A DNA stretch of 41,792 nt, taken from Candidatus Woesearchaeota archaeon. GTDB taxonomy: Archaea > Nanobdellota > Nanobdellia > SCGC-AAA011-G17 > JACPIM01. The position numbers and the translations under genes were made by a program. The stretch covers positions 1-41,792 of the forward strand of contig CAYSNL010000004.1 of NCBI GenBank assembly GCA_964432435.1. The letters are read 5' to 3'. The notes under the pieces were generated by a model. That model did no database searches. It had not been told where the DNA came from and saw nothing but the letters and a program-made list of their open reading frames with translations. Below, piece by piece: positions 4,630-40,951 of the stretch (position 1 is its first letter; each line of letters starts with the position of its first letter).

Positions 4630-4630
4630 T

Positions 4631-15476: not shown

Positions 15477-15908
15477 ATGCAACAAGAGAATAAAATACTA
15501 TTAAGTGCTATTTTAATTCTCGGGATTGCTATGCTGTCTTCTAGTTTCTTGAGTCTTACAGGTAATGTTGCAAATTGTGTAAAAAGTAATGCTGTTACCT
15601 CTCCTAATGAGATTAATAGTGGCGAAACTGTTACGATCAAAGCTAGTGGTGGGGATGGTTTTTATGAAGAAGCAAGAGTTTACAAAAGGGGTCTAGATAG
15701 AAATGGTAAAGTACGTGACTCTAGGATAAGTCAAGCTATAATGGGTGCTTGTGGTGGTAAATACAGATGTAAAGAAGGCGAATTTATAATACAAACTTTT
15801 TCTTCTGATGTTAATAACGCATGGATTAGTAATCAAGATTATGTTGTTAAATTAAAAGATGTATGTACTGGAGACTTCACAATTGAGGCTCCTTTTAGGA
15901 TAAGGTGA
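15477..15908 (+). CDS. Membrane-anchored Ig-like surface protein, array paralog 1
   Basis: N-terminal TM, LTGNVA motif, SP..I..GETVTI strand, Cys pair CGGKYRC and W..xDYVVK. Start moved to 15477 on SD evidence. Confidence 0.75.
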   Translation: MQQENKILLSAILILGIAMLSSSFLSLTGNVANCVKSNAVTSPNEINSGETVTIKASGGDGFYEEARVYKRGLDRNGKVRDSRISQAIMGACGGKYRCKEGEFIIQTFSSDVNNAWISNQDYVVKLKDVCTGDFTIEAPFRIR

Positions 15909-15913
15909 TAAAT

Positions 15914-16360
15914 ATGAATGAAAGAAAAACAATGTTTTTGGCGGTTGGTATATTGCTAGTGGCTATGTTGGCTAGTAGTTTTAGAGCTCCATTATCTGGA
16001 TATCAGATTAAAGATAGTGGTGGAACTGTAATTGATGTTAGTCCTAACCCTGTAGGACGAAATCAAATTATTGAAGTGACTGTTTATCCTGGTCCTAGTG
16101 GTGTAAAAAATGAATGGATGTGGATAGAAAGGAATGGGGTAAGAATGCAAGGAACTCTTAAACAAGTATGTCCTCAAGAGGGAACAAAGGAAGCTGTTTG
16201 TTATGATATGTCAAATGTTAAATATTTAGTAGGTACTAATGATAATGCTTGGCCTTCTGATGCTACCTATACAGTAAAAGCAGAGGAAAATGTAGAGTCA
16301 AGATCAGCAGGAGGCATAAGACAAAATGTTTATGCTACAGCAGATTTTAATATAATTTAA
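15914..16360 (+). CDS. Membrane-anchored Ig-like surface protein, array paralog 2
   Basis: N-terminal TM, LSGYQI, VSPNPV..IEVTVYPGPSG, Cys pair and AWPSDATYTVK. Confidence 0.75.
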   Translation: MNERKTMFLAVGILLVAMLASSFRAPLSGYQIKDSGGTVIDVSPNPVGRNQIIEVTVYPGPSGVKNEWMWIERNGVRMQGTLKQVCPQEGTKEAVCYDMSNVKYLVGTNDNAWPSDATYTVKAEENVESRSAGGIRQNVYATADFNII

Positions 16361-16375
16361 AGGAGGTTTAAATTT

Positions 16376-16816
16376 ATGGAACAAAATAATAAAACACTTT
16401 TGATTGCAGTATTAATAATTTTGTTAGCTTTGGTAGCTTTTAACTTTAATAAGATCAGTGGTAAGGTTGTAGATGATGGAAGTGATGTTAGTGTTGTAGT
16501 TTCTCCTTCATTGGTTACTTTTAGTGGAAATGAAGTCGTGAAACAAGTTACTGTAACCGTTGATACTGGGTCTGTTGGTGTTGATAACCAATTGGATTTA
16601 TATTCTGTAAAAGAAGGATATACTAATAGAGTTGGGAGTGGAGTAAGTGACAAACTATGCGGCACAAAAAGTATTTGTACTGGTGTAATCAGTAAACAAT
16701 TCCTTATCCCTTCAAGCGTTGATACTGGTGACTATTTAATAAGAGTTGAAAGAGATAATCCTTCATACAACTTTAAAGTAGATTCCAACATAATTACTGT
16801 AAATCATGTTGGTTAA
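16376..16816 (+). CDS. Membrane-anchored Ig-like surface protein, array paralog 3
   Basis: N-terminal TM, ISGKVV, VSPSLV..VTVTVDTGSVG, LCGTKSIC and TGDYLIRV. Confidence 0.75.
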   Translation: MEQNNKTLLIAVLIILLALVAFNFNKISGKVVDDGSDVSVVVSPSLVTFSGNEVVKQVTVTVDTGSVGVDNQLDLYSVKEGYTNRVGSGVSDKLCGTKSICTGVISKQFLIPSSVDTGDYLIRVERDNPSYNFKVDSNIITVNHVG

Positions 16817-16834
16817 TTTTTTATTTTTTTTATT

Positions 16835-17236
16835 ATGGAAAATGAATCAAAAATATTATTGGGTGCAATACTTATAATAGTAATAGCTATTTTTTCTTTT
16901 AATTCTAGTATAACTGGTTTTGGTATGAAAAATGTTTATACCTCCACTATAAAAATAAGTCCTAAGGTAGTTCTGAATAATGATAAAATTTTCATTACAG
17001 TATATCCTGGACCAGAAGGGGCAAATAACAATCTTAATTTTTATAATGCTGAAGATGATTTAAGAAAATCCTCGATTGAACTTTGTGGGGGTGATTATAA
17101 GTGTATGGATGAAACTACTGTTAGTTATTGGATTCCTAATGGATGGAAACCAGGAGTTTACCATGTTAAAGTGTACGATTATGACCGAAAGGATTTTATA
17201 ATTGAAGATTTTACAATTAAGAGAGGTGAAATATAA
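16835..17236 (+). CDS. Membrane-anchored Ig-like surface protein, array paralog 4
   Basis: N-terminal TM, ITGFGM, ISPKVV..FITVYPGPEG, LCGGDYKC and WKPGVYHVKV. Confidence 0.75.
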   Translation: MENESKILLGAILIIVIAIFSFNSSITGFGMKNVYTSTIKISPKVVLNNDKIFITVYPGPEGANNNLNFYNAEDDLRKSSIELCGGDYKCMDETTVSYWIPNGWKPGVYHVKVYDYDRKDFIIEDFTIKRGEI

Positions 17237-17709
17237 TGGATGAAAAAAAAGTGATTTTAGTTAGTCTAATTATACTTTTGATTGGTTTTATTAGTTATAA
17301 GTTTGCACCAGATCTTACTGGGCATTCTGTTGGTAATCAAGCGAGTCTAATTTTTATAGATGAAGATAAAGTAATGGAAGGTGGTACTATAAAAGTTACT
17401 ATAAGACCGGGTAGTAAAGGTATAATAAATGAAGGAGCATATCCTACTTCTCCTGTTTATTTAGATTTGTACAGGGTAAGTAGTGTGGGGGATGGTGAGC
17501 GTACTGCCTATAGGTTAAAAGTTTGCAATCATAACAGGTGTAAGAATAAGGTTACAACCTATTTTAGGGTACATTCTAATATAATTTCTGATTTTTCACC
17601 AACACAAAGGTTTTACTTAAGAGGTATTGATGGTAGTACCGGAAATGAAATTAGAGCTTATTTCTTAGTTGAAAACAATGATAAGATAACTTATGATGCT
17701 CATCGTTAA
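17236..17709 (+). CDS. Membrane-anchored Ig-like surface protein, array paralog 5
   Basis: N-terminal TM, LTGHSV, GGTIKVTIRPGSKG, VCNHNRC and RFYLRGID. Confidence 0.72.
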   Translation: MDEKKVILVSLIILLIGFISYKFAPDLTGHSVGNQASLIFIDEDKVMEGGTIKVTIRPGSKGIINEGAYPTSPVYLDLYRVSSVGDGERTAYRLKVCNHNRCKNKVTTYFRVHSNIISDFSPTQRFYLRGIDGSTGNEIRAYFLVENNDKITYDAHR

Positions 17710-18803
17710 TCTTTCTTTTTAATTTCTTGTTTTGTTATTTTTATTTCCCCTTTTTTTGATTCTATTAAAACTTCATCGTCCGGGTTAAATTTACTTATAT
17801 CTGTAACTATCTTAGGCAATTTAATAATCCCTGCTTTAATATCTAAACTTGTAAGAACTTCTTTTTTGTTAGAATGAATTGATTCTATTTCAATTTCTTT
17901 TAATATATTACTCATATGAAGAGACGTCTTTTTATTTTTGAATTCTCTTGTTTTATCGAAAAGAAATTTTGCTATTTCTTTGGCTACATTTTTTTTGGTT
18001 GCTTTTGTAATACCTTCTAGGCCTGGTGAAAGATTAACTTCTATGACTAAGGGTTTGCCATTACTTTCAAGAATATCTACCGCTGCAATATCTGCTCCAA
18101 TTGCCTTTGCCGCTTTTATTGCTACTTGCTCTGTATCATAATCTAATTCAAAATTGATTCCTTCACCGCCCGCATGAATATTTGCTCTCAATTCTAATTT
18201 TGATGCCTTTCTTTTCATCGAAGCAGCTACTTTATCACCTAATACGATGACCCTTATATCTGTTGAGTTTGTTTCAATAAACTCCTGGATCATGTATGGT
18301 TGATGAAAAACATCTAGTGCATCTAACATAGATCTTGCGGAACTAATTGAATCTGCAAACATAACTCCTTTTCCTTGGGTACCTGATGGGATTTTCATTA
18401 TTATTGGATAATTTACTTGTTCCAAAAGCTTTTTTGCTGCATCAACATTGGCTACAAAATAAGTTTGTGGTATCGAAACTTTATTTTTCTGCAACTCTAA
18501 TAATGTTAAAAATTTATTGTGGCCTAATGTAAAAGATGAAGGTTCTAGGGGGAGGTAAATATCTGAATGTAGTGCTCTTGTTAAAGACTGTTGTAATAAG
18601 GCATATTTAAAAGAGCCCCTTATGTAAATACAATCGTACTCTTTTATTGGTTTGCCTTGATATAATACGTCTAACCTTTTTGAATTCGCTCTGACTTCAA
18701 GGTCTTTGATATTTAAATGATCAACCGTATCGAAAAAGCTTTTTGCTTCCTCTAATATCTTTTTGCTACTTTTGCCACCTAAACTTATTAATGCAAAATT
18801 CAT
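17706..18803 (-). CDS. rimK: RimK-family ATP-grasp alpha-L-glutamate ligase with C-terminal AbrB/SpoVT-like domain
   Basis: NKFLT, YPIIMKIPSGTQGKGV, IQEFI, DIRVIVLG, RANIHAGG, AAVDIL and IEVNLSPG motifs. The C-terminal GIIKLPK..FNPDDEVLI..GEIKIT resembles an AbrB swapped hairpin. Confidence 0.88.
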   Translation of the reverse strand: MNFALISLGGKSSKKILEEAKSFFDTVDHLNIKDLEVRANSKRLDVLYQGKPIKEYDCIYIRGSFKYALLQQSLTRALHSDIYLPLEPSSFTLGHNKFLTLLELQKNKVSIPQTYFVANVDAAKKLLEQVNYPIIMKIPSGTQGKGVMFADSISSARSMLDALDVFHQPYMIQEFIETNSTDIRVIVLGDKVAASMKRKASKLELRANIHAGGEGINFELDYDTEQVAIKAAKAIGADIAAVDILESNGKPLVIEVNLSPGLEGITKATKKNVAKEIAKFLFDKTREFKNKKTSLHMSNILKEIEIESIHSNKKEVLTSLDIKAGIIKLPKIVTDISKFNPDDEVLIESKKGEIKITKQEIKKKD

Positions 18804-19126
18804 TTTGATGGATCGATTAAAAAATCGTTATTCTTTAAAGTGTTTTTACCTATTAAGACAGTGTAATTTAGATGATTCCTGTCAATAACATTAAAATCTG
18901 TTATGATCTTTTTGCTTTTTATTTCTAATTCCGCAGTGTATATATTTCTTAATGTAAAACCATGGGATGATTTAGTTTTAACCTTTTTTCCAGTCGGTGT
19001 AAGATTCAATTTTTTGATTAAAGATCTACAGATAGAATTTCTATCCGCACCTGTATCAATTTTAGCATTGACTTCTATACCATTAATTTTAACTTTTTCA
19101 ATTAAACCTAAGATTGTTTTTTCCAT
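18800..19126 (-). CDS. Retropepsin-like aspartyl protease (RimK-associated, RimB/'ATP-dependent Zn protease' family)
   Basis: AKIDTGADRNSI (DTG catalytic motif), DR..LNYTVLIGKN; 4-nt overlap with rimK. Confidence 0.85.
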   Translation of the reverse strand: MEKTILGLIEKVKINGIEVNAKIDTGADRNSICRSLIKKLNLTPTGKKVKTKSSHGFTLRNIYTAELEIKSKKIITDFNVIDRNHLNYTVLIGKNTLKNNDFLIDPSK

Positions 19127-19253
19127 AATTGTTAAGTATTTAAACTGGCAATTATGTTTTTAAAAGTTTCGTGTCCCTTAATATGTGATAAACTTTACAG
19201 TCACAAAAAAATGCATAGAAACAATTATAAATAAAAAAACAAATATTTTGTTT

Positions 19254-20273
19254 ATGGAAGAAGGATTTGAATTAAAAAAACACTCAAATTATTTTTTTGT
19301 TGGTAGTTTTGTTATTATTATACTTGCTTCAATTATTACTGTTTGGCCCTTTCTTGGTGCAATTGTTGGAGCAATAGTACTTACATATATTGTTTATCCC
19401 ATCTATGATCTCATATTGAGATATTTAAAAAATGAAACTATTAGTTCTCTTATCACTTCTCTACTTGTGTTCATCTTAATGTTATTACCTTTTGTATTTT
19501 TGGGGACTTCAATTTTAAATGAAACTACTACTTTTTTTTATAGTGTAAGAACTATAAATTTTGATACATTAGGGCTAGACTATATAAATAGTTATTTTGG
19601 TGGTAATATTGATGTTGGTTCATTTATTAAAGATGCTTTAAATAAACTGTCTACTACTTTAGTGCAAAATGCACATGACTTTATTATTGACATACCAAAA
19701 AAAATATTGGCGTTGTTTGTGCTTTTCTTTTTAATGTTTTATTTATTAAAAGATGGAAAAAGACTAATGAACAATATAAAAGAGGCCTTGCCTTTAAAGA
19801 GAAGATATAAAGAAGATATTGCTAAAAAATTTAATGATACTATATCTGCTACTTTATACGGCGTTGTTTTAACCGGTATAATACAAGGTATAATTGGAAC
19901 AATAGGGCTGTTAATTTTTAAGGTTAATTCACCATTTTTATGGGGTTTTGTAATGATAATATTAGCCATGATTCCTTTAGTAGGGGCGGCTTTTGTTTGG
20001 TTTCCTGCCTCTTTAATAAAGCTTGCCTCTGGGGATATAACTAATGGTATAGGCCTATTGTTATATGGTATTTTAATTGTGAGTACTATTGATAACATTA
20101 TAAGACCTAAATTAATTGGAAGCAAAGGAAAAATTCATCCTGGTTTGGTTTTTTTAGGTGTTTTGGGGGGGTTACAGGTTTTTGGTTTAATGGGCGTTTT
20201 TATCGGTCCTTTGATACTAGCTATATTAACTGTATTTTTTGAGATTTATACAAGTGAAGAATATGAATCTTAG
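19254..20273 (+). CDS. AI-2E family transporter
   Basis: Multi-TM; FYLLKDG, QGIIG, IPLVGA..VW.P, IDNIIRPKLIG, HP..VFLGVLGG and GVFIGPLILA. ATG at 19254 preferred over the track start 19185. Confidence 0.9.
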   Translation: MEEGFELKKHSNYFFVGSFVIIILASIITVWPFLGAIVGAIVLTYIVYPIYDLILRYLKNETISSLITSLLVFILMLLPFVFLGTSILNETTTFFYSVRTINFDTLGLDYINSYFGGNIDVGSFIKDALNKLSTTLVQNAHDFIIDIPKKILALFVLFFLMFYLLKDGKRLMNNIKEALPLKRRYKEDIAKKFNDTISATLYGVVLTGIIQGIIGTIGLLIFKVNSPFLWGFVMIILAMIPLVGAAFVWFPASLIKLASGDITNGIGLLLYGILIVSTIDNIIRPKLIGSKGKIHPGLVFLGVLGGLQVFGLMGVFIGPLILAILTVFFEIYTSEEYES

Positions 20274-21741
20274 AGTTAAAAGGGTGGGCCTTTCTAGTGG
20301 CGGTCCTTTAATAGTAATAATTAATTACTTAGATGCTATAAAAACAGGGTTAAATGCTCTTGATAGAGTTAGAATTTTATACAAGAAAAGAGAAATGGTT
20401 TGTGTTGTTAACATAGCTGCTAATCATAATGTTGGCAGTAGTGAGATTGGATTATTCGATGAAGTAATTGACAGTATAAAGGTAAAGGAAGGGGATTTTG
20501 TTGATGTTGAATATGAAAATAAACCCATATCTATTAGTTATATAAAAGACAAACTTTCAGGAAAAAGATTAAATGAAAAACAGATAAAAGAAATAATAGA
20601 TGATATAGTAAAAAATAAATTAAGTGAGGTGGAAGCTTCTTACTTTATAGCTGGTATTTATGTTCATGGTTTAGATGAAATAGAGACTCTAGCAATGATA
20701 AATTCTATTGCTAGTGAAGGTAAACCAATGAGTTGGGGTAAAAAAATTGTAGTTGATAAACACTCAAGTGGTGGGACGGCTGGGAATAGAACTACAATGA
20801 TAATTGTTCCAATTGTGGCTGCTGCTGGCGTTTGTATTCCAAAGACTAGTTCAAGGGCTATTACTAGCCCAGCTGGTACTGCAGATTCTATGGAAGTCTT
20901 GGCCAATGTTTCTTTTTCAGCAGATGAAATAAAAAAAATTGTAAGTAAAACAAATGGTTGTATAGTTTGGGGTGGTACTTTAGATTTAGCGAGTGCTGAT
21001 GATAAGTTAATAAAAATTGAAAAGACCCTCGGGTTAGATCCGGAAGGCACTTTATTGAGTAGTGTTCTTGCAAAGAAAAAAGCTGTTGGTGCAACACATG
21101 TTTTAATAGATATTCCTTACGGGGATGGCGCAAAGATAGGTAATAAAATTAAAGCTAAAAACCTAAAAAGGAGGTTTATCAAACTTGGAAGGAAATTGGG
21201 TATGAATATAAAAGTGATTTTAACAGACGGAAGTGAACCTATTGGAGATGGAATTGGTCCTAGTTTAGAAGCAATAGATATATTAAAAGTATTAAGATGT
21301 GAGGAAGATGCTCCGCAAGATCTTAAAGATAAAGCAGTTATGATGGCTGGTTTGATATTAAAGATGGCTGGTAAAGGTAATGAAAGAACTGCATTAGAAA
21401 TATTAGAATCTGGTAAAGCTTATTCGAAAATGAAAGAGATCATCGAGGTGCAAGGGGGAAATGAAAATATAAAACCAAGAGATATTAAACTTGGAAGATA
21501 CTCTTATGTTTTTGAATCAAAAAAAACAGGCATAGTAAAAAGAGTTGATAATTTAATGATAAATAAAATAGCAAGATTTTCAGGAGCTCCTGGTGATAAA
21601 TGTGCTGGTATATATTTATTTGTACATAAAGGGGATTATGTAAAAAATGGAGATAAGCTGTTTGCAATCTACTCTGAAGATAGTAACAAATTAAAACATA
21701 GTTTAAACTTATTAAAAGAAGAAGTAATAACTATTGTATAG
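20263..21741 (+). CDS. deoA: AMP phosphorylase (thymidine phosphorylase family)
   Basis: N-terminal double-psi barrel-like region, DKHSSGG..GNRTT, PKTSSRAITSPAGTAD, WGG..LASADD, QGG and GAP.DK.AG motifs. ATG at 20263 overlaps the transporter stop. Confidence 0.95.
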   Translation: MNLRVKRVGLSSGGPLIVIINYLDAIKTGLNALDRVRILYKKREMVCVVNIAANHNVGSSEIGLFDEVIDSIKVKEGDFVDVEYENKPISISYIKDKLSGKRLNEKQIKEIIDDIVKNKLSEVEASYFIAGIYVHGLDEIETLAMINSIASEGKPMSWGKKIVVDKHSSGGTAGNRTTMIIVPIVAAAGVCIPKTSSRAITSPAGTADSMEVLANVSFSADEIKKIVSKTNGCIVWGGTLDLASADDKLIKIEKTLGLDPEGTLLSSVLAKKKAVGATHVLIDIPYGDGAKIGNKIKAKNLKRRFIKLGRKLGMNIKVILTDGSEPIGDGIGPSLEAIDILKVLRCEEDAPQDLKDKAVMMAGLILKMAGKGNERTALEILESGKAYSKMKEIIEVQGGNENIKPRDIKLGRYSYVFESKKTGIVKRVDNLMINKIARFSGAPGDKCAGIYLFVHKGDYVKNGDKLFAIYSEDSNKLKHSLNLLKEEVITIV

Positions 21742-21776
21742 AAAAACTTTTAAACAGAGTATATTAATCAATTTAT

Positions 21777-22301
21777 ATGAAGAAATATTTTCTATTAATC
21801 TTTATATTTTTGTTAGTTAGTACTGTTCTTGCTAATAACAAAATAAAGCTAGATTTGAATTTAGAAAAGGAGATGCTTGTGCCAGTATTAGAAGGAGACA
21901 TGATTGAATTTTATTTGAACAATTCTAGACATGTTATAAACGTTGAGAAAGTTATGCCAGAATCATTAGATTTGGATATCTTTTTATTTGTTGATGAAGA
22001 TCAAAGAGTAAGTTATCTTACTGCTTCTAAAGGTAAAACTATTAAGATTGATGTGAACAAGGATGGAAAGAGTGAATTATATCTAGGATATGCTGGTCAT
22101 TTTAGTAATAAAAGTTTAATATTTTTTTATACTCCTGATAGTGAAAATACTTTAAGTGATATAACTGGGAATGTTATTGCCGAGAATCAAAAAACTGAAG
22201 AAAAAAGTTATAAACTATACTATCTAGGTGGCATATTAATATTAGTTATAGTATTAATATCTATATTATTGTATATAAATACTAGAAAAAAAGAGATATA
22301 G
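21777..22301 (+). CDS. Exported protein with C-terminal membrane anchor, unknown function
   Basis: Signal peptide (..TVLA/NN), beta-rich domain, ITGNVI motif, C-terminal TM followed by RKK. Confidence 0.75.
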   Translation: MKKYFLLIFIFLLVSTVLANNKIKLDLNLEKEMLVPVLEGDMIEFYLNNSRHVINVEKVMPESLDLDIFLFVDEDQRVSYLTASKGKTIKIDVNKDGKSELYLGYAGHFSNKSLIFFYTPDSENTLSDITGNVIAENQKTEEKSYKLYYLGGILILVIVLISILLYINTRKKEI

Positions 22302-22389
22302 TTGTTCGAAAGCTTTATATATTAGCAATTGTTGTTTAAATACAATAATTTATAGATTAATTTTTAACAAGAGGCGAGGTGGAACTCAA

Positions 22390-23934
22390 ATGAATAATAA
22401 ACGTTGGTATATTCTTTTTAGTGTTTTAATTCTTTTAATGGTGATATATGTTTTTGCTGAACAATTACCTGGAAATAGAAATAGTGGTGGTATTGGTTTT
22501 AATTTTACTGTTACCACATATAGAGGTGGTCTAATCAATTGGACTGGTGGTAATGGTGGTCAACAACCAGCTTTAGCAAATAATTCTGAAATAATGGCTG
22601 GAGTGTTAAATCTATCTATAACTCTTGATGTTGCTAATGGTACAACAAATGTTTCTTGGTATATTGCTAATGCGTCTGATGATTCTCAAAAATGGATATT
22701 TATAACTGATTTAAATGTTTCAAATGCAACAGGGTTTATTGGCTATGATTTATCAACAAATCTTGATTTTGCTGCTATAACAAGAGATAACGCAAGAACT
22801 TATAGAATTAGGATAAATGCAACAAACTTATCAACTTATAATGGAAGTCTATACGGATATGGTGGTGCTGGTGGTACAAGTAATGGCAACCAAACGATTA
22901 GGATATTAACTATAAAGATTTATCCAAATCAATTGAATAGAGGGCATAGTAATGGTACTGTTATTCCTAATGGTTATTATAAAAAGGCAGATGGTACTGC
23001 TGTTAATAATATAACTCAATTTGCTAATGTTACTGGAACTGTTAGATTTAATGCTAGTATAGCCGCTGGTAATAATATGACTTCAAACGTAACTTGGTAT
23101 GCAATTAAAGGAGCTACAGAGGTAGTTCTTGGATCAAATCATACGATAGGTGGTACTGACTTGGTATTTGATACAGCTAATGGTTCATTACCTGATGGTT
23201 GGTATAATATAACTTTAGCAGTTACTAATTTAACTAATGGAAGTGGTATTGCAGGAAAAAATTATTTATTTAATATGGCAAATACCAGAAACATAACTAT
23301 CTTAAATATACATATAGATAATATTGCGCCCGCGGTGAGTGTTACAACTAGTGATACAAATAGTGTAGTATACACTAGAGGAGAACAGACTGTTACATGT
23401 GAATATTCAGATCCTACTGGTGGTGCTGGTTTAGTTTCCTCTTCGAGGCAATTAGAATTAGTAAAACCAAATGGTGATGTTATAACTTATACTGATACTG
23501 ATGCGCTAGAACATACATTTAGTGAAACTGATACTGCTTCAACTGGTACATATACAGCCAAATGTAGGGTTACTGATGGGGTAGGCAAAGAAACTGTGGC
23601 AGAAAAAACATTTGATGTATGGGCTAGAGGTGGTGTTTCAAGTGCAACTGCTGCTGGAAAGAAAGCTAAAGCTATAGAAGAAATAGAAGGTGGAGAAGCA
23701 GCTGGAGAAGAGGTTGCACCTACTGGACCAACTGGTGCTGCTGCAGCTGGCGGAGAAGGAGCTGTTCCTAGTGGAGCTGGTACTACCGGTAAAGCCGGCG
23801 CAGGTACAACTGTTGCAGTGATAGTAGGTATAGTAGTAATTGCAGGGGGCATTATTTACTTCCTAGTAAAGGGAAAACCAGGAAAGAAAGGACAAATAAA
23901 ATTCAGTAGAGCTGAATTAATGCCTAAAAGATAA
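22390..23934 (+). CDS. Heavily N-glycosylated cell-surface protein with C-terminal TM anchor
   Basis: Signal peptide; about 25 N-x-S/T sequons in the first ~305 aa; Ig-like ID..AP.V..YT..C.VTD..G domain; Gly/Ala/Thr linker; TM and basic tail. SD GAGGTG upstream. Confidence 0.8.
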   Translation: MNNKRWYILFSVLILLMVIYVFAEQLPGNRNSGGIGFNFTVTTYRGGLINWTGGNGGQQPALANNSEIMAGVLNLSITLDVANGTTNVSWYIANASDDSQKWIFITDLNVSNATGFIGYDLSTNLDFAAITRDNARTYRIRINATNLSTYNGSLYGYGGAGGTSNGNQTIRILTIKIYPNQLNRGHSNGTVIPNGYYKKADGTAVNNITQFANVTGTVRFNASIAAGNNMTSNVTWYAIKGATEVVLGSNHTIGGTDLVFDTANGSLPDGWYNITLAVTNLTNGSGIAGKNYLFNMANTRNITILNIHIDNIAPAVSVTTSDTNSVVYTRGEQTVTCEYSDPTGGAGLVSSSRQLELVKPNGDVITYTDTDALEHTFSETDTASTGTYTAKCRVTDGVGKETVAEKTFDVWARGGVSSATAAGKKAKAIEEIEGGEAAGEEVAPTGPTGAAAAGGEGAVPSGAGTTGKAGAGTTVAVIVGIVVIAGGIIYFLVKGKPGKKGQIKFSRAELMPKR

Positions 23935-23960
23935 ATATTAGTTTATCTTTTTCTTTTTTA
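23926..23960 (+). terminator. Hairpin plus T-tract terminator
   Basis: AAAAGATAAA (23926-35) / TTTATCTTTT (23942-51) forms a 10-bp stem followed by T-runs, at the stop of the 22390 gene. Confidence 0.6.
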
Positions 23961-27761: not shown

Positions 27762-27859
27762 TATTGTTCGCTTTAATAACACTTGCTTAATAGAGGGTAT
27801 TTTCATCCTATTCTAGAGTTACATAAAATTTATAATACTAATTTTATTGCTGATTCTAC

Positions 27860-32920: not shown

Positions 32921-32922
32921 TC

Positions 32923-33185: not shown

Positions 33186-33192
33186 ATAATCA

Positions 33193-33750
33193 TTAAATTG
33201 ATTCTTGTGGTTGTACACATAATGTAATTTTAGCTGTTATTTGTGGTGAAACACTAACTGTAGCTGAGCCTGTAATTGATGCTTGATTTAGTGATTCACA
33301 ATTTGTACTTGGGTTGTAGATTGGTAATGGATTAGTGCCATGAGCTGTAAATTCAAGCTTATATTTTTTATTTTGGAATGTTCTTCTTAATATATCCCTA
33401 ATAAAACTTGGTTTTGAATCACATAACTCCCCTTGTGAAGTTATCGGTTCGCAGCTAGATGGTCTTGCAGGTGAATCTTGGCAACAATTTTTCATAAATT
33501 TACATTGGTCAGACTCTATTTTAGCTGAATTATAGCATTCCACTATTTTTTTAGCTATTGTTGAACCATCTTCTGTATTTGATCTTAAAATAGCATTTAA
33601 CATATTGCTCGCTTGAATACTTTGCCTTTGTAATTCTACTGAGTCAGTTTTAGGCACTATGAGGAATTTTATAGCCATTAAAATAACAAATACTAGTATA
33701 AGGACTATTACCATAAGCCCTATTATCTCTATTTGGGCTTTTTTAGTCAA
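33193..33750 (-). CDS. Type IV pilin-like protein (class III signal peptide)
   Basis: MTKKA/QIEIIGLMVIVLIL.. followed by a Cys-rich head domain. Confidence 0.75.
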   Translation of the reverse strand: MTKKAQIEIIGLMVIVLILVFVILMAIKFLIVPKTDSVELQRQSIQASNMLNAILRSNTEDGSTIAKKIVECYNSAKIESDQCKFMKNCCQDSPARPSSCEPITSQGELCDSKPSFIRDILRRTFQNKKYKLEFTAHGTNPLPIYNPSTNCESLNQASITGSATVSVSPQITAKITLCVQPQESI

Positions 33751-34303
33751 GTTTAAACACCTCTATACTTAAAATGCCAATTTTATATTCGTTTTTTAAA
33801 GGATAATAGACTGAAATGGGGTTTTTTCTTACTTCTTTATTTGTATTTGATGAAGGAATACCTGGGTCATAGATTGTGAACTTTTGACACTTGTTGTCTG
33901 GATAATCATTACTAAAATGACTAGCTATGTCACCTATTGTACAATCTGTCTTTTTGTCTTCCTCTTTGACTGGCGGGTATATTATTTCTAAAATAACTTT
34001 TTTATCATTTCCAAAAAAACCACTATAATACTCTTTGTAATTTTGGTCGTTAGAATTTAAAATATTTGCCAAGGAGAATATCTTAATTGAGTTAATAACT
34101 CCTGTTTCATGAGTTAATTCTGCCATTGAAGAAACAGAATCAGTTAATATTATCGCATCTACATCTGTAAATCTTTCACCAGTTTCTTTTAATCCTTTAT
34201 TTAGGAAAGAATAATAAATAACCATCCCTATAAAGATTATTACTATTAGTATTAATAATACAAAAATCATTTCCATAAACTGGACTTGGGCTCTTTTTTT
34301 CAT
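33743..34303 (-). CDS. Type IV pilin-like protein (class III signal peptide)
   Basis: MKKRA/QVQFMEMIFVLLIL..; Cys pair in the head; C-terminal Y.IGILSIEV strand. Confidence 0.75.
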   Translation of the reverse strand: MKKRAQVQFMEMIFVLLILIVIIFIGMVIYYSFLNKGLKETGERFTDVDAIILTDSVSSMAELTHETGVINSIKIFSLANILNSNDQNYKEYYSGFFGNDKKVILEIIYPPVKEEDKKTDCTIGDIASHFSNDYPDNKCQKFTIYDPGIPSSNTNKEVRKNPISVYYPLKNEYKIGILSIEVFKLD

Positions 34304-35262
34304 ATTAACAACCTTGTAGTTTCAGTACCTTTATATAAAACAGGACAATTAGTTGTTTTTAGGGCTTCATTATCTGTTTTAATATTCTTGGCAGCATCTA
34401 TACTTTGGGTTGTGCTTAGAATTTTTAGTTGTTCTTCGAAATTATAGGAACTATCACAGCCTTCTGCTTTTTCTAGTCTTCCTAGGGTATCTTGGTAAAT
34501 TTCAACAATGTTGCTTATCCTTTGTTTTGCTAGTCCCTTAATGATACAGTTAAACTGATCGTAATCTGCTGAAAAAATAGCTGCATAAACCATTGTGTCA
34601 CCCCAAACTGGAAGTTCATTTCCTTGTTTAAATTTAACTTTTGGGTTTTCACTGTCTAAACCAATAAACTGAACTGTTTTAACATTATTCGGTAAATTTG
34701 CAGGCGGGTTGCTATCAAAATAAACTAATACTGTTTTATCTAAAAAATTTGGTAAAGCAGTGACCTTTTGTGGGTTAAATCTTTTTGGGAATTTATCAAA
34801 AAAATACTTAGGTAAATCTCCTGTTGGGTTAACAAAATAAAACCTGGTGTTTTGGTCTGCTACAAAGTATAGATTATCAATTTTAAATGGATAATTCCAG
34901 GCTAAAGTCCAAGCTTGAACTGATTTTCCTTCGATATCAAACGGCACGAAAATTAATTTTTTTGTTTCTCTTTTATCTTTTTCATTTTTTGGTATCTTTA
35001 AATAAATCTTTTTATCTGTATTATCGCACTCTATTCTAATCTTTGAGTCTTCTGAAAATTGGATTACTTTTTCTGAATTTGATGCTAGGGCGAAAGAAGC
35101 CAAGTTTTTTTCTAAAACCAATATGTTTTCTGTTTTTGTTAATTTTTCTGAAAAACCTAATAAATCCTTTCCAAAACTAAAAAAGAAAACCAAGATGATA
35201 GCACCAGCAATTATAGTAAACATAATAGTAAAAACAAAAATAGATACTCCTCTTTTTTCCAT
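34300..35262 (-). CDS. Large pilin-like protein (class III signal peptide)
   Basis: MEKRG/VSIFVFTIMFTIIAGAIILVFF; WTLAWNYPFKIDNLYF motif; C-terminal Cys cluster. Confidence 0.7.
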   Translation of the reverse strand: MEKRGVSIFVFTIMFTIIAGAIILVFFFSFGKDLLGFSEKLTKTENILVLEKNLASFALASNSEKVIQFSEDSKIRIECDNTDKKIYLKIPKNEKDKRETKKLIFVPFDIEGKSVQAWTLAWNYPFKIDNLYFVADQNTRFYFVNPTGDLPKYFFDKFPKRFNPQKVTALPNFLDKTVLVYFDSNPPANLPNNVKTVQFIGLDSENPKVKFKQGNELPVWGDTMVYAAIFSADYDQFNCIIKGLAKQRISNIVEIYQDTLGRLEKAEGCDSSYNFEEQLKILSTTQSIDAAKNIKTDNEALKTTNCPVLYKGTETTRLLI

Positions 35263-35285
35263 AAAATTAATATTGAATTAGAAAG

Positions 35286-35294
35286 TTTATATAA
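35286..35294 (-). promoter_or_regulatory. Putative internal TATA box for the 35262-33193 pilin genes
   Basis: TTATATAAA on the minus strand about 25-30 nt upstream of the ATG at 35262. Confidence 0.45.
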
Positions 35295-35302
35295 TTTTTT
35301 GT

Positions 35303-35839
35303 TTATATTTTTTCTATTAGTACTTCATTTCCTTTACTTTCTAGCCTAATATTTAATTTATATCTGGAAGCTGCTAAATCAATGCATAAAGGATTACTAG
35401 GAGCAACTGTAAATTTGCTGTTTATATTTGCTTTTTCTGGCAAAGAAGCTGGATTTTCTCCTTTTGTCTTTTTTTCACTATATTTCCAAAAGACAACGTT
35501 ACTAGTACCTACTGAACCTAATAGTTTGCTCTTAAAGCTTGGATCATTACATTTACCTGTTAAACTACCAAAATCTTTATTTTGGGAATCAATAAAACAA
35601 AAACATTCTACGGAGTTTGGAAATGTGAAAGTGAATTTATTACTTGAGCCTTCTTCTAGATTATAAAAAGTTGTAACATCCTCATTTATTCTTTTGGCTA
35701 TATCTGCTATCTGAGCAAAATTAGCTCTTTCACTTAAATCATAATAAATTTTAATACCAAAAACAAGAACCATAGCTGCTACAACTATGGCAAAGATAAA
35801 AATGAATGGTTCACCGAAAATTTGGGCTCTTTTTTTCAT
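35303..35839 (-). CDS. Type IV pilin-like protein (class III signal peptide)
   Basis: True start at 35839: MKKRA/QIFGEPFIFIFAIVVAAMVLVFG; CFCF motif; C-terminal LESKG..VLI. Confidence 0.75.
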   Translation of the reverse strand: MKKRAQIFGEPFIFIFAIVVAAMVLVFGIKIYYDLSERANFAQIADIAKRINEDVTTFYNLEEGSSNKFTFTFPNSVECFCFIDSQNKDFGSLTGKCNDPSFKSKLLGSVGTSNVVFWKYSEKKTKGENPASLPEKANINSKFTVAPSNPLCIDLAASRYKLNIRLESKGNEVLIEKI

Positions 35840-35855
35840 GTTCTTGTTAAATTTT

Positions 35856-36122
35856 TTAGATATAAATCTTATCATGATGATCGAAATCATCAAAATAAAT
35901 AGTATCAGTATTTTTATTATATTGAAAAATTAAAACAAAGTGTCCGAGATGGACACTTTTTGAATCCTTCATAGAATATCTTAAATTTTTGTAATGATCT
36001 ATATCGATACAGTTTACTATTTCATTAATCTTTTTTATTAGTTGCTCATATAACCTTTTATCTTTTTTGGACAGTTTTTTAAGTATTTCTTGTAGATTCT
36101 CGCTTAGTTCAAAATTATGCAT
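35856..36122 (-). CDS. relE: RelE/ParE-superfamily (RelE/StbE-like) toxin
   Basis: LKKL.KKD..YEQL.KKI.EI, HYKNLRY, VHLGHFVLIF and FDDFDHHDKIY motifs; directly downstream of the antitoxin. Confidence 0.82.
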   Translation of the reverse strand: MHNFELSENLQEILKKLSKKDKRLYEQLIKKINEIVNCIDIDHYKNLRYSMKDSKSVHLGHFVLIFQYNKNTDTIYFDDFDHHDKIYI

Positions 36123-36130
36123 ATTGCCCC

Positions 36131-36367
36131 TTAACTCGTAGCTTTCCTTAATTCTTCTACTGAACTAAATTTAATATACTTGCCTTTTCTTATTTTTTCA
36201 AGCTTCTCCAAATATTCTGGCCTTAATTCTGGTTCCAATACTTCTTCCTCGTATTTTTCAATAATAATGCCTATTGCTTCTGATTTATCTTTTAAACCAT
36301 ATTTTGCTTTAACAATGTTTAAAATCCTATTCTTGTTTTCATCTAAATTTATCAATGCTTGTACCAT
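36131..36367 (-). CDS. Antitoxin (DUF2683-like)
   Basis: MVQALINLDE..NRILNIVKAKYGLKDKSEAI, LEPELRPEY and a C-terminal F.SVEELR; 78 aa, upstream of the toxin. Confidence 0.78.
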   Translation of the reverse strand: MVQALINLDENKNRILNIVKAKYGLKDKSEAIGIIIEKYEEEVLEPELRPEYLEKLEKIRKGKYIKFSSVEELRKATS

Positions 36368-36388
36368 ATTATTTCACCTTATTTTAAC

Positions 36389-36409
36389 TAAGCTAGACTT
36401 ATTTATAAA
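36389..36409 (-). promoter_or_regulatory. TA promoter: TATA (36402-36409) with adjacent inverted repeat TAAG-N5-CTTA (36389-36401)
   Basis: Minus strand reads GCAAAG-TTTATAAA-TAAGTCTAGCTTA-G..AAGGTGAAATAAT-ATG, giving BRE/TATA, a palindrome and an SD. Confidence 0.55.
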
Positions 36410-36430
36410 CTTTGCTATGCTTTTAAAATA

Positions 36431-39400
36431 TTAAGGATAAACTGTAAATGTAGATGGTGGATTATTAAACTCATCTGTACACTTTATTATATAAATTTGA
36501 TTTATTAAAGTAGCTTCATGGGTTATTGAATTTGGATTTGACATATCTGAACCAGAACCAAAGCTAAAGTCACTATCTGAATATTGACATGTTGAAGGTT
36601 CATCTGTTGTTATATGTAACGTGCCTGATTCTTTGTAAACTGAGACTAATTTGGGTGGTTCTTTATCGGCTTTTATAGAAAATTCTATGATATCTTTAGC
36701 CTCATTACCAGCTTTATCTACACAAGTTATATAGAACTTGTAGTTCCCTTCTTTTAAAGGAGATAAAGGTTGTGTACTTTCTGTTGATAAAGTATTTACG
36801 AAAGCAGGCATATTAGTGAATGGCATATTTTCTTGCTGTGAATAACCACAAATTGCCCTCCCTGATTCTGCTCCTTTTGATGTAGTAACTGATAAAACTA
36901 TATCACTGCCTGTTTTTAGTTCGCCTTGTGGTGACTTATCTACTATTTCCAATTTATTAGTTGAAATTAAAGTGTAAGGGTAGCCTTGAATGTTCTTGTT
37001 TCCTGCTTTATCTTTACATCTGAAATAATAAACATTTCTTATATTCCCTGGTGTTGGTGTTGGTTCTGATGAAGTTGATTCAGATGATGATGTAGACTGA
37101 GCTTTTTCTAAATTTAAAGTTGTTGAACATTGATAAGCCATATTAGACGAGATATCAATTCCTGAAGAAGCACAGTTAAATTGGTTTTGCATTGCATCAA
37201 AATCTATGTCTCTATTTGGTTCCCATTTACAAACCGCTGGTTCATTAACAAATATTGAAATAGGTGCTTCATTTATATTTTCTTGCATATACGTACCTGA
37301 AGTTATTGAAGTGCTCGTAATTTCTGGAGGGGATAAATCTGGACCTGCTTCAATTGCAAATTTAATGTAATAATCTTTACCATTTGCATTACCTGTTGAA
37401 TCTTTACATCTTAGATAAATAGTGTATTGGCCTCCATTTGTTAATTGCAAAGCTTGTTGGGTTGCTAAATCTGAAGGTAACATGAAGGTCATATTATGTT
37501 TTATTAAGAAATAGCTTGATCCAAAATCAAATTCCATTGCATCAAATGCATCTTTTGAATTTACTTTTTCAGAAGGTTTGGTTGTGAACTTGCATTGGGC
37601 AGCTTCATCTGTTATTAATCCTAATTTTACTGGTGTGAATGGTGGTATTTTATTTACAACTGTGAAACCATTATTTGAATCTTCCTGGATTTGATAAGCT
37701 TTCATATAATCTTTGTCTGGTCTTATTCTTGGTGAGGCAGCATCATTTGGTTGAATATTTGTACAAATTTCATGATCTGTTCCAGCATTTACAATTGAAC
37801 ATAATTTTCCTAATGATTTACATCTATATTCTGAACACGGTTTTGTTTCATCATTACATTTTTCACAATCAGAACCGCCATCTGGCGCTTCCCATGCCTT
37901 ACAAATAAACCCTACTTTTCCTTTTTGAGTATCTGCAGCTAACCAATCAACTAATTCATAAATTGTCCAGATCCAAGCTATTGCATTTGCTATACCCAAA
38001 GCATAACCTGCGTATGTTGGTGCAGGTGCTGCTGTGGCTGTGCTTGTTATGCTATTTTCTGTTACAACATTATTTCCGGTAACTCTAAATAAATCTTTTG
38101 ATCCTTCAACAGCTGAAATACCTGCAGGAGGAGTTTGAACTGTTGTCGGGGTTAAAATTTTTTGGCTTATTAATGTCTGAGCTTGTGGAGAGTTGATAGA
38201 ATACACACCTGGTGTAACACCTAAAGAAGGATTTACAATGGAAGGATTTACAATAACCTGATCACCACTAACTATAGCTGTTGGATTTATTGATGTATAA
38301 GTTTGCGTCTCTGTAAATTTAAATCCTCCTTTTATAAGTTCGCTTTGTGTAAATACTGTACGTGTTGGAATTGTCTGTCTCGCTGCAAAAGTTTGTGGTA
38401 GGGTAGTTAATTTCCCAAATCCTGCTGATTGTAACGAGCTTGCCATTGATGCTCTTCCAGCACCAGCAACACCACCAATACCGGCAAATGGTGCTATCAA
38501 AGTCATTGGACCAAGTAAAAATCCACCTGCCAATCCTGAAAGGCTGTTGGAAGCTAGTCCTATCAAACTGGTACCCCCAATTATAGTTAAGGGTAAAGCT
38601 GATTTTTTAAAGAAATCAGAAAATCCTGGTTTTTTAGGACCACCACCTGTTTTTGGTGGTTTTTCTAGAGCATATTTCAATAAATTTGGTCTTGCCCTTT
38701 CCATTAATTTTTCTCTAATTCTATCTGGAATTGCCAAAGCACCTTTAGGACCTTCTGCTTTTACATCAAAACCACCTTCTGTAAACACACCAACATAATT
38801 GAAGTAAGCACCACAATCTCCTATTGATCTACAAACAGAATGTGCTGCTGTAAATGCATCATCTGTTAAACATTGAGGATTATAGGTAACTTTCCAAGAA
38901 CTTTTACCTAATATATGATCCCAACCTGTTCTTGTAAATCCAACTTCACAATCAACATTAGCTTGAGAACAAATATCATTGCCTACTGAATCACCAGTAT
39001 AAACTCCACCCCCTTGGTTGGTAGGATTAGATGTACCTAAATTTAAATTTTGATTTCCTCTGATTTGTGGTGTATCTGCTGGTGAACCTGACGGTTGGCC
39101 GGGTGTTGCTGGTGTATTTATGATCGGTTGTTGATTTGGTTGGTTTGTAATTACTGGATTAGGATTCGGGTTAACTACCTGAGCGCCTGTTATTTCTAAA
39201 ATAGCACTACCCGTTGGATTATTTGTTGTTGATTGTCTGGATGAAATTAAATTATTATCAGCCCAAAATCTTAATCCCGGCTTTACTAAAGGAACACAAA
39301 TGCCTCCTTTATTTGAGATCCCGGAATTGAGGAAAGAACAATCTCTCGTAGAAATATCTTCACAACAAGATTGGACTTGTGATTGGGAAGATAAAGTATT

Positions 39401-40951
39401 GCATTGCGCGCATGTATCAAACCTATTTTGACGGCAAGCTGCTTCTGAATAACCTGAATCTGAGGATCCGAGATTATTTTTAGAAGGATCAAAAATATTA
39501 CCTAAAGGAGAAGATGAAAATGGAAGTTGAGGCAAATTCTTTGTAATTTCAAGAAATAAAGATGTTCCTTCGCCTGTAGTTGATTGATCATTTGAATACG
39601 ATTGGGTGCAAAGCTCTTCCCTAAAATCCTTACATGGTTCAATTATTTGTTCACCATTAATACAAGAAGCCCTAAAATGACGTGAACCTGCTCTATCTTG
39701 TGGGGCCCCGTATTCATCTGGGCCTATTGGACCATCATAAAGACACCAAGACTCGCCTAATTCCTTGCTGCCACCAGAGGCATCTGGAGAATTATTATCT
39801 TTTGTGGTGTCTTTACAATTAAGATCCTCGCAAATAAATTCACCATCTTTTTCCCCACAGAGAGTACCTTGAGTATAATCACAGTTTCCACAATTTTCAT
39901 CGTTTGGAGAAGCTGTACATAAAGAATCAGGATCTTGTAAAACTCTACCTTGACTATAGGATAAGGATTTTTTTTCTTGAGAGTTTCCTAGGAAAACATT
40001 TTCAGGATTATTACCTGAATCAAACCAGTAAACGTCTTCATTATAACAACTTAAATGATGTAATTTTGCAACTTCACATGGAAGTTCGTCATTGCTGCAT
40101 AAATAACCTTCAAAAAAACCCGTTTTTTCTTGTACTTCGGTGTTTTGATTAAAATTGGCTACTGCTTGGCCTGAAATTTGATTACTTTGTGATGTTGAAG
40201 AGGATGTTGGAGAGGTTGTTGTTTCTGTGCTTGATTTCTTGCAAACCGGCTTAGCATTTGGATCAGTGCTTATTTGAACTGGCTCTAAACCAGAGCAACA
40301 CTGTTGATTTAGGGAAGTATCAACAATTGAATTTTTAGGTATGCAATTTTCAAATCCAGGAGATTGCTGTTCTGGAGATGGCGGTAAAGTTTTTTGGATT
40401 CCACATTCTTCTGCTGTTGTAAATGAACATTGACCACGAGCTTGAACACAGCAACCTTTAACCCCTGACTTTACTGAAGATAAACAAGTATATTCATCTT
40501 GAATTCCTGGATCAAATTTCATTTCAACATTTGGATATTGGGAGGTTACTTGTTTACATTTTGTTAATGTTGAAATAAAAGCTTGATTACTTAACTGACA
40601 GCAACCCACTGAACATTGGGCTATTTGAGAACAATCACCTTTTTGGAAAGTTCTTTCTCCGGCGCTTTTACATTCTGAATTAGCAACATTATTAAAACAT
40701 TCACCGGAATCAGAATCAAAACAACAACCTAAACTACAATAGTCGGTGTTTTCACAGGTTGTAAGAGCATGTTGCTTTGTTTGATCACATTGAGACGAAT
40801 CTGTATAAACACAAAAATCTCCTGATGTTGTTTTTTCACAACATTCTTTATTTTCTTGAGCTTTTACTTTTGGTGCAAAGGATGGAAATGATAAAGTAGA
40901 AAAGACTATTAAAAATATCATAAGAATAGCTTTTTGCTTTACCTTGATCAT
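36431..40951 (-). CDS. Giant (1506 aa) secreted Cys-rich surface protein with internal hydrophobic segments and C-terminal Ig-like repeats
   Basis: Signal peptide (..KVKA/QE); GCC-type Cys repeats in the N-terminal half; Ser/Thr/Pro/Gln linkers; a Cys-free central region with two hydrophobic segments; repeated D..PP.I / T.E.A.C / Y.I.C.D..GN Ig-like units. Confidence 0.8.
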   Translation of the reverse strand: MIKVKQKAILMIFLIVFSTLSFPSFAPKVKAQENKECCEKTTSGDFCVYTDSSQCDQTKQHALTTCENTDYCSLGCCFDSDSGECFNNVANSECKSAGERTFQKGDCSQIAQCSVGCCQLSNQAFISTLTKCKQVTSQYPNVEMKFDPGIQDEYTCLSSVKSGVKGCCVQARGQCSFTTAEECGIQKTLPPSPEQQSPGFENCIPKNSIVDTSLNQQCCSGLEPVQISTDPNAKPVCKKSSTETTTSPTSSSTSQSNQISGQAVANFNQNTEVQEKTGFFEGYLCSNDELPCEVAKLHHLSCYNEDVYWFDSGNNPENVFLGNSQEKKSLSYSQGRVLQDPDSLCTASPNDENCGNCDYTQGTLCGEKDGEFICEDLNCKDTTKDNNSPDASGGSKELGESWCLYDGPIGPDEYGAPQDRAGSRHFRASCINGEQIIEPCKDFREELCTQSYSNDQSTTGEGTSLFLEITKNLPQLPFSSSPLGNIFDPSKNNLGSSDSGYSEAACRQNRFDTCAQCNTLSSQSQVQSCCEDISTRDCSFLNSGISNKGGICVPLVKPGLRFWADNNLISSRQSTTNNPTGSAILEITGAQVVNPNPNPVITNQPNQQPIINTPATPGQPSGSPADTPQIRGNQNLNLGTSNPTNQGGGVYTGDSVGNDICSQANVDCEVGFTRTGWDHILGKSSWKVTYNPQCLTDDAFTAAHSVCRSIGDCGAYFNYVGVFTEGGFDVKAEGPKGALAIPDRIREKLMERARPNLLKYALEKPPKTGGGPKKPGFSDFFKKSALPLTIIGGTSLIGLASNSLSGLAGGFLLGPMTLIAPFAGIGGVAGAGRASMASSLQSAGFGKLTTLPQTFAARQTIPTRTVFTQSELIKGGFKFTETQTYTSINPTAIVSGDQVIVNPSIVNPSLGVTPGVYSINSPQAQTLISQKILTPTTVQTPPAGISAVEGSKDLFRVTGNNVVTENSITSTATAAPAPTYAGYALGIANAIAWIWTIYELVDWLAADTQKGKVGFICKAWEAPDGGSDCEKCNDETKPCSEYRCKSLGKLCSIVNAGTDHEICTNIQPNDAASPRIRPDKDYMKAYQIQEDSNNGFTVVNKIPPFTPVKLGLITDEAAQCKFTTKPSEKVNSKDAFDAMEFDFGSSYFLIKHNMTFMLPSDLATQQALQLTNGGQYTIYLRCKDSTGNANGKDYYIKFAIEAGPDLSPPEITSTSITSGTYMQENINEAPISIFVNEPAVCKWEPNRDIDFDAMQNQFNCASSGIDISSNMAYQCSTTLNLEKAQSTSSSESTSSEPTPTPGNIRNVYYFRCKDKAGNKNIQGYPYTLISTNKLEIVDKSPQGELKTGSDIVLSVTTSKGAESGRAICGYSQQENMPFTNMPAFVNTLSTESTQPLSPLKEGNYKFYITCVDKAGNEAKDIIEFSIKADKEPPKLVSVYKESGTLHITTDEPSTCQYSDSDFSFGSGSDMSNPNSITHEATLINQIYIIKCTDEFNNPPSTFTVYP

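Follow-up and report, generated by a model that had tools for sequence, protein, structure and literature searches.

A hydrophobic-[T/S]-G motif as the candidate signature of an anchor-and-stalk module in one family of small DPANN surface proteins

In a 41,792-nucleotide contig of a Candidatus Woesearchaeota archaeon (CAYSNL010000004.1; this whole stretch is referred to as the window), a short hydrophobic-[T/S]-G motif recurs in exported proteins. Our leading reading, held with slightly less than even confidence and drawn from sequence comparison, is that the motif is the signature of an anchor-and-stalk module belonging to a single family of small surface proteins (~130-165 residues) that is specific to DPANN archaea and whose N-terminal anchor is probably uncleaved. 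The broader proposal of the initial annotation, a general sorting signal of the form [ILP]-[TS]-G-x-x-[AVIM] shared by unrelated exported proteins, is not supported by the sequences compared here. What is new is an unannotated DPANN family with a conserved anchor-stalk module.

The family is represented in the window by five tandem genes, each carrying one copy of the motif:

15477-15908, plus strand: paralogue 1 of the small Ig-like family, with LTGNVA at 15555-15572 (the open reading frame opens at 15435; the Met at 15477 fits the family N-terminus)
15905-16360, plus strand: paralogue 2 of the small Ig-like family, with LSGYQI at 15992-16009
16376-16816, plus strand: paralogue 3 of the small Ig-like family, with ISGKVV at 16454-16471
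16835-17236, plus strand: paralogue 4 of the small Ig-like family, with ITGFGM at 16910-16927 (modelled with AlphaFold2)
17236-17709, plus strand: paralogue 5 of the small Ig-like family, with LTGHSV at 17314-17331

The five proteins (15435-17709) can be aligned from end to end and are 24-34% identical, and the chosen start of the first is supported by its orthologue in a related locus (L001), which begins MMQQENK. The five N-terminal motif cases, all in tandem paralogues of the same family, amount to a single observation rather than five. Searching 1.84 billion representatives with a family profile (E ≤ 0.001) returned 263 clusters, nearly all of 120-170 residues and matching over the full length, and family members carry the source labels Woesearchaeota or Nanoarchaeota. 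A repetitive protein of 3501 residues among the profile matches (P0016) aligned through a hydrophobic segment only and was discarded as spurious. A word-indexed homologue search with the family profile gave only 14 proteins, and a scan of metagenome contigs with a narrower family alignment only four short loci. No Pfam or NCBIfam model covers the family, and we found no description of either the motif or the family in the searchable literature.

In a 43-member family alignment (26% mean column identity), the motif Gly was the sole invariant column and the motif Thr one of five columns conserved at ≥90%. When 134 members were anchored on the dipeptide, all had Gly (134/134), preceded in every case by Thr (109) or Ser (25; together 134/134). 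The residue ahead of this pair was mostly hydrophobic (I 47, L 42, F 10, V 8, M 6), and Gly was followed by x-[V44/A38]-[V42/T37/I17], the position directly after it (+1) being taken by K32, Q18, R13, N12, E10, I7 or S7. Measured from the final charged residue of the n-region, the Thr position most often lay 22 residues away (71 of 132 members), with most distances within 20-25. By these alignments, [T/S]-G is the most conserved element of the family and is under strong selection. A reading of N-[IL]-T as an N-glycosylation sequon was rejected, Asn being present there in only 22 of 134 members.

The make-up of the module and the strength of its conservation are direct observations. It opens with a short n-region, M-[ED]-K-[DN]-N-K, and a transmembrane (TM) helix (L+2, A+5, I+8, A+12, S+15), continues through an interfacial S-F-N-F belt, two variable residues, the hydrophobic-[T/S]-G element and x-[A/V]-[T/V], and leads after 6-10 more residues into a disulfide-containing Ig-like (macroglobulin-like) sandwich. 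Among the 58 members with modal spacing, conservation along the helix was high at K0 (53/58), L+2 (47), A+5 (52) and I+8 (52), and further on at A+12 (40), S+15 (42), F+16 (45) and N+17 (42). Mean pairwise identity was 28% over the N-terminal 26 residues versus 23% over the ectodomain. As a control, we used the family of a giant surface protein from the same lineages: there, the signal-peptide core was 15-22% identical, close to the composition-only level of 16%, and the mature protein 45%. By these measures, the N-terminal helix of the small Ig-like family does not resemble a signal peptide that is cut off and discarded.

An AlphaFold2 model of paralogue 4, built from the family alignment, reached a mean predicted local distance difference test score (pLDDT) of 90. 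It placed a TM helix at residues 4-23, a linker containing the TG at residues 24-37, and an Ig-like sandwich of seven strands (pLDDT ~98) at residues 38-128, whose fold matched macroglobulin and Ig-like domains generically only. The lowest confidence in the model (pLDDT <50) fell exactly on residues 27-29, the TG itself, and the motif is thus best seen as a linear element in a flexible juxtamembrane segment outside the fold.

The same Ig-like domain also occurs in tandem within larger secreted proteins, and the Gly could be followed through these other architectures (all following counts for relatives and junctions were made by eye from printed sequences). Where a canonical AxA signal peptide directly preceded the first domain, TG was found in 0 of 9 relatives. 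At junctions between tandem domains, x-G followed the last strand (F-x-V) in 21 of 28 cases and [TS]G in 8 of 28. Two relatives carry the motif further from the signal: in P0139, a lipobox-like signal and ~60 residues of linker come before ITGKVT, which itself precedes the first domain, and P0136 has ITGKVL 15 residues beyond a canonical VSA site. Because of this distribution, Gly behaves as a boundary or hinge residue required wherever further chain precedes the domain. In these sequences, a strict T/S is confined to the membrane-anchored form, and some copies of the motif are not membrane-adjacent. We also noted that the S-F-N-F-x-x-I-T-G stretch (belt and motif) of the anchored proteins (P0001-P0150) resembles a domain end together with the junction behind it, Y-F-N-V-T-G, in the tandem-domain relatives P0021 and P0126; the anchored form could have originated from a tandem-domain ancestor.

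In the reading that we favour, the helix would serve as a signal anchor that remains embedded in the membrane, where it may pack against those of the other paralogues; hydrophobic-[T/S]-G would mark the exit of the chain from the membrane interface; and [T/S]-G would start a flexible stalk bearing the Ig-like domain. An uncleaved anchor would explain the conservation of the TM helix, the fixed spacing, the distribution of Gly and the retention of a single 100-residue domain at the cell. Several results weigh against this reading. Helical-moment analysis at 100 degrees per residue detected no significant conserved helix face (P=0.37), and because of this result helix packing is a step that we infer; a period-3 signal in the same analysis (P=0.005) was left uninterpreted. 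A plain hinge covers the invariant Gly only and leaves the invariant T/S unexplained. A signal-peptidase site, too, would be consistent with the hydrophobic residue at -3, Gly at -1 and their constant distance from the n-region, and relatives with the same domain have an AxA site at nearly the same place. Finally, a matrix derived from the family scored 4 hits in exported proteins of the window versus 0.97 expected, which, together with an ITGxV island in a 174-residue protein described below, hints that the motif may have been reused within the lineage.

Part of this evidence bears on an alternative that we consider possible but doubtful, namely that the N-terminus is a specialised, conserved Sec signal peptide cut after Gly by a type I (Sec11/SipW-type) signal peptidase, freeing the Ig-like domain with an N-terminal tail of 6-10 residues. 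Gly would then occupy -1 in 134/134 members and I, L, V, F or M would occupy -3 in 113/134, at a fixed 22-23 residues from the n-region and within the segment of low model confidence. In multi-domain relatives, a canonical AxA site precedes the same domain by 2-6 residues, and related genomes do encode type I signal peptidases with a V-[SV]-[SG]-S-M-E-H motif (L053, 2584-3174; L057, 3862-4434). However, the (-3,-1) rule leaves -2 free, yet T/S is invariant at that position, and -3 also accepts P, T, S, A, Y, W and K. Conservation in the n- and h-regions is position-specific and at least matches that of the mature domain, in contrast to ordinary signal peptides from the same lineages. A lone 100-residue domain released in this way would have no evident means to stay on a cell that lacks an outer membrane, and in P0136 and P0139, where the motif lies 15 to ~60 residues past a canonical signal peptide or lipobox, it is not a signal-peptidase site.

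The initial annotation had grouped the five paralogues with motif copies in three further surface proteins, and all ten instances that it cited were found at their positions. A further high score on the family-derived matrix was added by us. The remaining proteins and motif copies are:

21777-22301, plus strand: 174-residue protein comprising signal peptide, beta-rich domain and C-terminal TM helix
22161-22178, plus strand: ITGNVI, linker of the 174-residue C-anchored protein
22390-23934, plus strand: 514-residue surface protein, C-terminal TM helix, rich in N-x-S/T
23728-23745, plus strand: PTGAAA, 514-residue surface protein, in a low-complexity stretch of G, A, T and P
36431-40951, minus strand: 1506-residue Cys-rich giant surface protein, within a pilin-like gene cluster
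40177-40160, minus strand: ISGQAV, giant protein, at the end of a low-complexity linker
39217-39200, minus strand: PTGSAI, giant protein, first of a tandem pair with ITGAQV at the end of a low-complexity linker
39193-39176, minus strand: ITGAQV, giant protein, second of the tandem pair
33259-33276, minus strand: ITGSAT, high score on the family-derived matrix, near the C-terminus of a pilin-like protein (33193-33750) and followed by VSVSP

Across the 41 proteins of the window, [ILP][TS]G..[AVIM] matched 18 times versus 5.5 expected from per-protein composition (Poisson P=2e-5), and after removal of four of the five paralogues 14 times versus 5.2 expected (P=0.001); these P values are optimistic because the pattern, including P at its first position, was fitted after the fact. 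The recurrence described in the initial annotation was thus borne out as a count, with the reservation that five of its instances amount to one and that the pattern is post hoc. Eight matches that it had not listed lie in multi-TM enzymes, cytoplasmic proteins or low-complexity sequence, among them a PMT_2 glycosyltransferase, a family 4 glycosyltransferase (GT4), a retropepsin-like protease, a GT1 enzyme, the C-terminus of an S-layer protein, a TM segment of a methyltransferase, and PSGSPA. The matches beginning with PTG sit in low-complexity sequence rich in G, A, T and P or in N and P. Proximity to the membrane held for the family, in which the motif follows the hydrophobic core by 1-7 residues, but not elsewhere: ITGNVI and PTGAAA lie ~16 and ~19 residues before their TM helices, and the linkers that hold the sites of the giant protein are separated from any TM helix by more than 200 residues.

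For an independent comparison, genes were called in 21 other DPANN loci, gathered via AMP phosphorylase and the giant protein, and family members were set aside. The non-family exported proteins of these loci (85 proteins, 32.5 k residues) contained the pattern 9 times versus 11.4 expected, and a stricter form, [IL][TS]G..[AVI], 6 times versus 8.6 expected; in the cytoplasmic and multi-TM classes the pattern was at expectation. In this comparison, the window alone gave 8 matches versus 2.8 expected. With the family-derived matrix, exported proteins of the 21 loci gave 5 hits versus 3.0 expected. Positional counts pointed the same way: directly after an N-terminal TM helix, [ILVMF][TS]G was carried by 0 of 13 non-family window proteins and by 3 of 71 proteins from the other loci (2.4 expected, and one of the three is a missed family member), and ahead of a C-terminal TM helix by 1 of 4 and 0 of 10, respectively. 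Other secreted proteins of the window have ordinary signal-peptidase sites (VLA/D, VLA/N, VFA/E, AVA/Q and VKA/Q, the slash marking the site) and no motif. The claim of a shared signal at N- and C-terminal anchors of unrelated proteins therefore fails in these loci, because outside the family there is neither enrichment in the secretome nor positional bias relative to TM helices, the two results that the initial annotation itself had named as refuting it. By the window counts, a modest excess of the motif is left, confined to this lineage.

In the 174-residue protein, ITGxV was invariant in 8 homologues (50-68% identity), and no other invariant island lay between the domain and the TM helix. 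It was missing from homologues at 36-37% identity, in which architecture and gene context (after an AI-2E permease) were unchanged. Within this protein family the distance between motif and TM helix varies by three residues (spacer 16-19), and an AlphaFold2 model (mean pLDDT 51) placed the motif in a low-confidence stretch and showed nothing more. Among 72 homologues of the giant protein, both I[ST]G sites were retained in the three closest. At the first linker position, I/L-[ST]-G-[QNA] was also found in P0168, P0170, P0182 and P0183, and I[ST]G-[QNA]-x in P0158-161, P0168, P0170 and P0182-183, down to 29% identity; most of the 72 have no motif there. The second linker is an insertion limited to the closest four sequences and absent from more distant homologues. 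It consists (39176-39217, minus strand) of a tandem eight-residue unit, PTGSAILE-ITGAQVVN, which the three closest homologues retain as PTGKAITE-ITG[EK]QV. We read ITGxV and the I[ST]G sites of the giant protein as short islands whose conservation does not extend beyond this lineage and its near relatives, and probably as a different device from the family module. PTGAAA in the 514-residue protein is best read as compositional. This protein has ~20 N-x-S/T sequons, and the cytoplasmic tail after its TM helix is strongly conserved (KGKPGKKGQIKFSRAEL, identical in L001), which suggests an intracellular interaction.

The same islands could instead be substrates of one dedicated enzyme whose recognition sequence, hydrophobic-[T/S]-G-x-[A/V]-[V/T/I], lies in the disordered linkers of several surface proteins in this lineage, a restricted form of the initial proposal that we consider unlikely. 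The enzyme could be an O-glycosyltransferase such as the PMT_2 enzyme of the GT-C class, a sheddase or a transpeptidase, with the family, the 174-residue protein and the giant protein as substrates. The invariant Thr/Ser of the family speaks for it, as do the sole invariant island in the 174-residue linker, the recurrence of the motif and the tandem pair PTGxAIxE-ITGxQV in the linkers of the giant protein, the matrix excess in the window and the presence there of both PMT_2 and a Dpm1-like GT2. Against it stand the lack of enrichment or bias in exported proteins of the 21 DPANN loci, several of which carry the family, the loss of the motif in the more distant 174-residue homologues and in most giant-protein homologues, the variable distance to the TM helix in the C-anchored protein, and a window enrichment of three to four sites under a post hoc pattern. 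A more specific version, in which an envelope enzyme of a Woesearchaeota sub-lineage (either a sheddase or a GT-C/PMT-type O-glycosyltransferase working at a constant height over the membrane) would read a motif that had spread from the family into the 174-residue and giant-protein linkers, appears similarly improbable.

Gene context offered no enzyme for such a role. The order of the five-gene array is conserved in L001 and L059, where it is followed by genes for a RimK-like ATP-grasp ligase, a retropepsin-like protease, an AI-2E permease, AMP phosphorylase and the 174-residue protein; in other genomes, family genes occur in pairs among unrelated housekeeping genes. In the family neighbourhoods that we examined, no peptidase, sortase or glycosyltransferase was conserved beside the family, and the 41.8-kb contig and the available parts of a relative's genome contained no sortase. 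The PMT_2 enzyme is indeed encoded in the window (823-2625), but the array is 13 kb away and family members elsewhere have no such gene in their neighbourhoods; no candidate is linked to the family in other genomes. Thus, the existence of a GT-C enzyme stood up and its link to the motif did not, and a dedicated processing enzyme is not indicated. What is left of the idea of a short linear recognition or processing motif is a strongly conserved TG beside a TM helix, within one family, where it may have such a role.

The array is directly followed by the ligase/protease pair (17706-19126, minus strand), in which the RimK-like ATP-grasp ligase gene overlaps that of a 108-residue retropepsin-like (RimB/Zn_protease-type) aspartic protease, an arrangement also conserved in L059 and L060. 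The window has a G+C content of ~30%, and its AMP phosphorylase is 77% identical to that of a groundwater metagenome-assembled genome labelled 'Candidatus Woesearchaeota archaeon' (locus L001, syntenic with the window). Together with a ribose-1,5-bisphosphate isomerase-like protein (IF-2B family) and a form III RuBisCO, this enzyme makes up a complete trio (6640-7452, 8810-10099 and 20239-21741 for isomerase, RuBisCO and AMP phosphorylase, respectively). Such an AMP/nucleotide-salvage trio is typical of DPANN archaea, and in L053 its genes lie close to a pilin/S-layer cluster. Archaeal-type AMP phosphorylase homologues at 46-47% identity (L007, L009) were found on contigs labelled Gracilibacteria and Patescibacteria, reflecting either mis-binning or transfer between DPANN and the Candidate Phyla Radiation. 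Glycan-biosynthesis genes are dense at 171-5620, 10092-15129 and 26574-28810. They encode two GT2 enzymes (Dpm1-like), PMT_2, a second multi-TM GT-C-like protein with no Pfam hit, a GT4 (GPT family), a flippase-like Polysacc_synt protein, a GT1, an NDP-sugar epimerase/dehydratase and an asparagine synthase, a set consistent with heavy surface glycosylation.

The window also encodes an archaeal S-layer protein (S_layer_C) and several proteins with class III signal peptides (KRAQ/KRGQ). At 33193-41752 (minus strand), as in L053, L054, L055 and L057, class III (pilin-like) genes flank the gene for a Cys-rich giant protein of 1100-1500 residues, which combines a hydrophobic region at its centre with Big_13/Y_Y_Y-like Ig domains at its C-terminus. 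Throughout Woesearchaeota and Nanoarchaeota, this cluster adjoins PCNA and an S-layer gene, and no ATPase or platform gene was seen within the stretches read. Inside the cluster lies a ParE/RelE-like toxin gene (35856-36122, minus strand; 88 residues; ParE_toxin E=6e-4, below the Pfam cut-off), with a ParE-like toxin at a comparable place in L055 (19881-20135) and L056.

In DPANN archaea, which live in attachment to other cells, most surface proteins carry no annotation. Defining this widespread family, which lies outside Pfam and NCBIfam, gives small Ig-like surface proteins a recognisable conserved anchor module with an invariant [T/S]-G, and thereby a concrete handle for annotation and for studying how surface domains are displayed or released. 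That independent sequence data did not support a general sorting signal should curb over-interpretation of the motif.

Several known systems share features with the module. Archaeal type IV pilins likewise combine a conserved hydrophobic N-terminal helix with a variable beta-sandwich in tandem paralogues, and the five proteins might accordingly be filament subunits, with the helix as filament core or the tail after TG as a donor strand, and TG as the joint between helix and globular domain. We regard this as very unlikely. In its favour are, besides the shared architecture, a weak Pilin_N match of paralogue 1 (E=0.009) and genuine pilin-like genes in the window (33193-35893, 40952-41752). However, the family has no [KR]-[GA] prepilin-peptidase site: its Lys is directly followed by I27, V19 or T7 of 58 and never by G or A, whereas the window's genuine pilin-like proteins carry KRAQ, KKAQ or KRGQ, and a class III signal peptide was rejected. 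Pilin_N (PF07790) reached 17.3 bits versus a cut-off of 25.2 in one paralogue and matched 2 of 43 members at E<0.01, below the gathering score. No assembly ATPase or platform gene lies beside the family in the neighbourhoods examined, and the sandwich is complete (seven strands, pLDDT 98), with no open donor-strand groove.

The substrates of sortase (LPxTG) and archaeosortase (PGF-CTERM) resemble the family in having a short motif with a conserved T-G beside an anchor, and the 174-residue protein shares with them the order of motif, TM helix and basic tail. In contrast to these substrates, the family has its anchor at the N-terminus, the wrong topology, and neither L-P nor PGF, and the DNA read showed no gene for a sortase or an archaeosortase. 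Identity as an LPxTG substrate was rejected: the family has x-x-[IL] before T, the 174-residue protein has S-D-I-T-G, a spacer of 16-19 residues, the TM helix and NTRKKEI, and the NCBIfam model EF0750_LPXTG gave E=0.23 and 12 bits versus a cut-off of 47. Archaeosortase was likewise rejected, the two C-anchored proteins having no PGF (PEF, VPXXXP) tripartite signal and the GG_III-CTERM hit scoring 14.5 bits versus a cut-off of 22. The lipobox, [LVI][ASTVI][GAS]-C, shares I/L, T/S and G as its first three positions at the same place after the hydrophobic core; it was dismissed, as its obligatory Cys is not among the common residues at +1. A true lipobox (ALSGC) is present in another protein of a related genome (L051, 1658-2410).

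Like a type I signal-peptidase site, the module has a small residue (G) at a fixed distance past the hydrophobic core and an aliphatic residue two before it; unlike such a site, its conserved pair is -2/-1 (T/S, G) and not -3/-1, and its h-region is conserved per position. The YSIRK-G/S, KxYKxGKxW and SipW-cognate classes differ from the family in that its sequence is unrelated to theirs and restricted to DPANN, and their NCBIfam models gave no match at E ≤ 1 to the five paralogues, P0015, P0048 or three other proteins of the window. Although it is a member of none of these classes, the module would, by analogy, work most like them, joining a conserved N-terminal targeting module that ends in invariant residues to mature parts that diverge.

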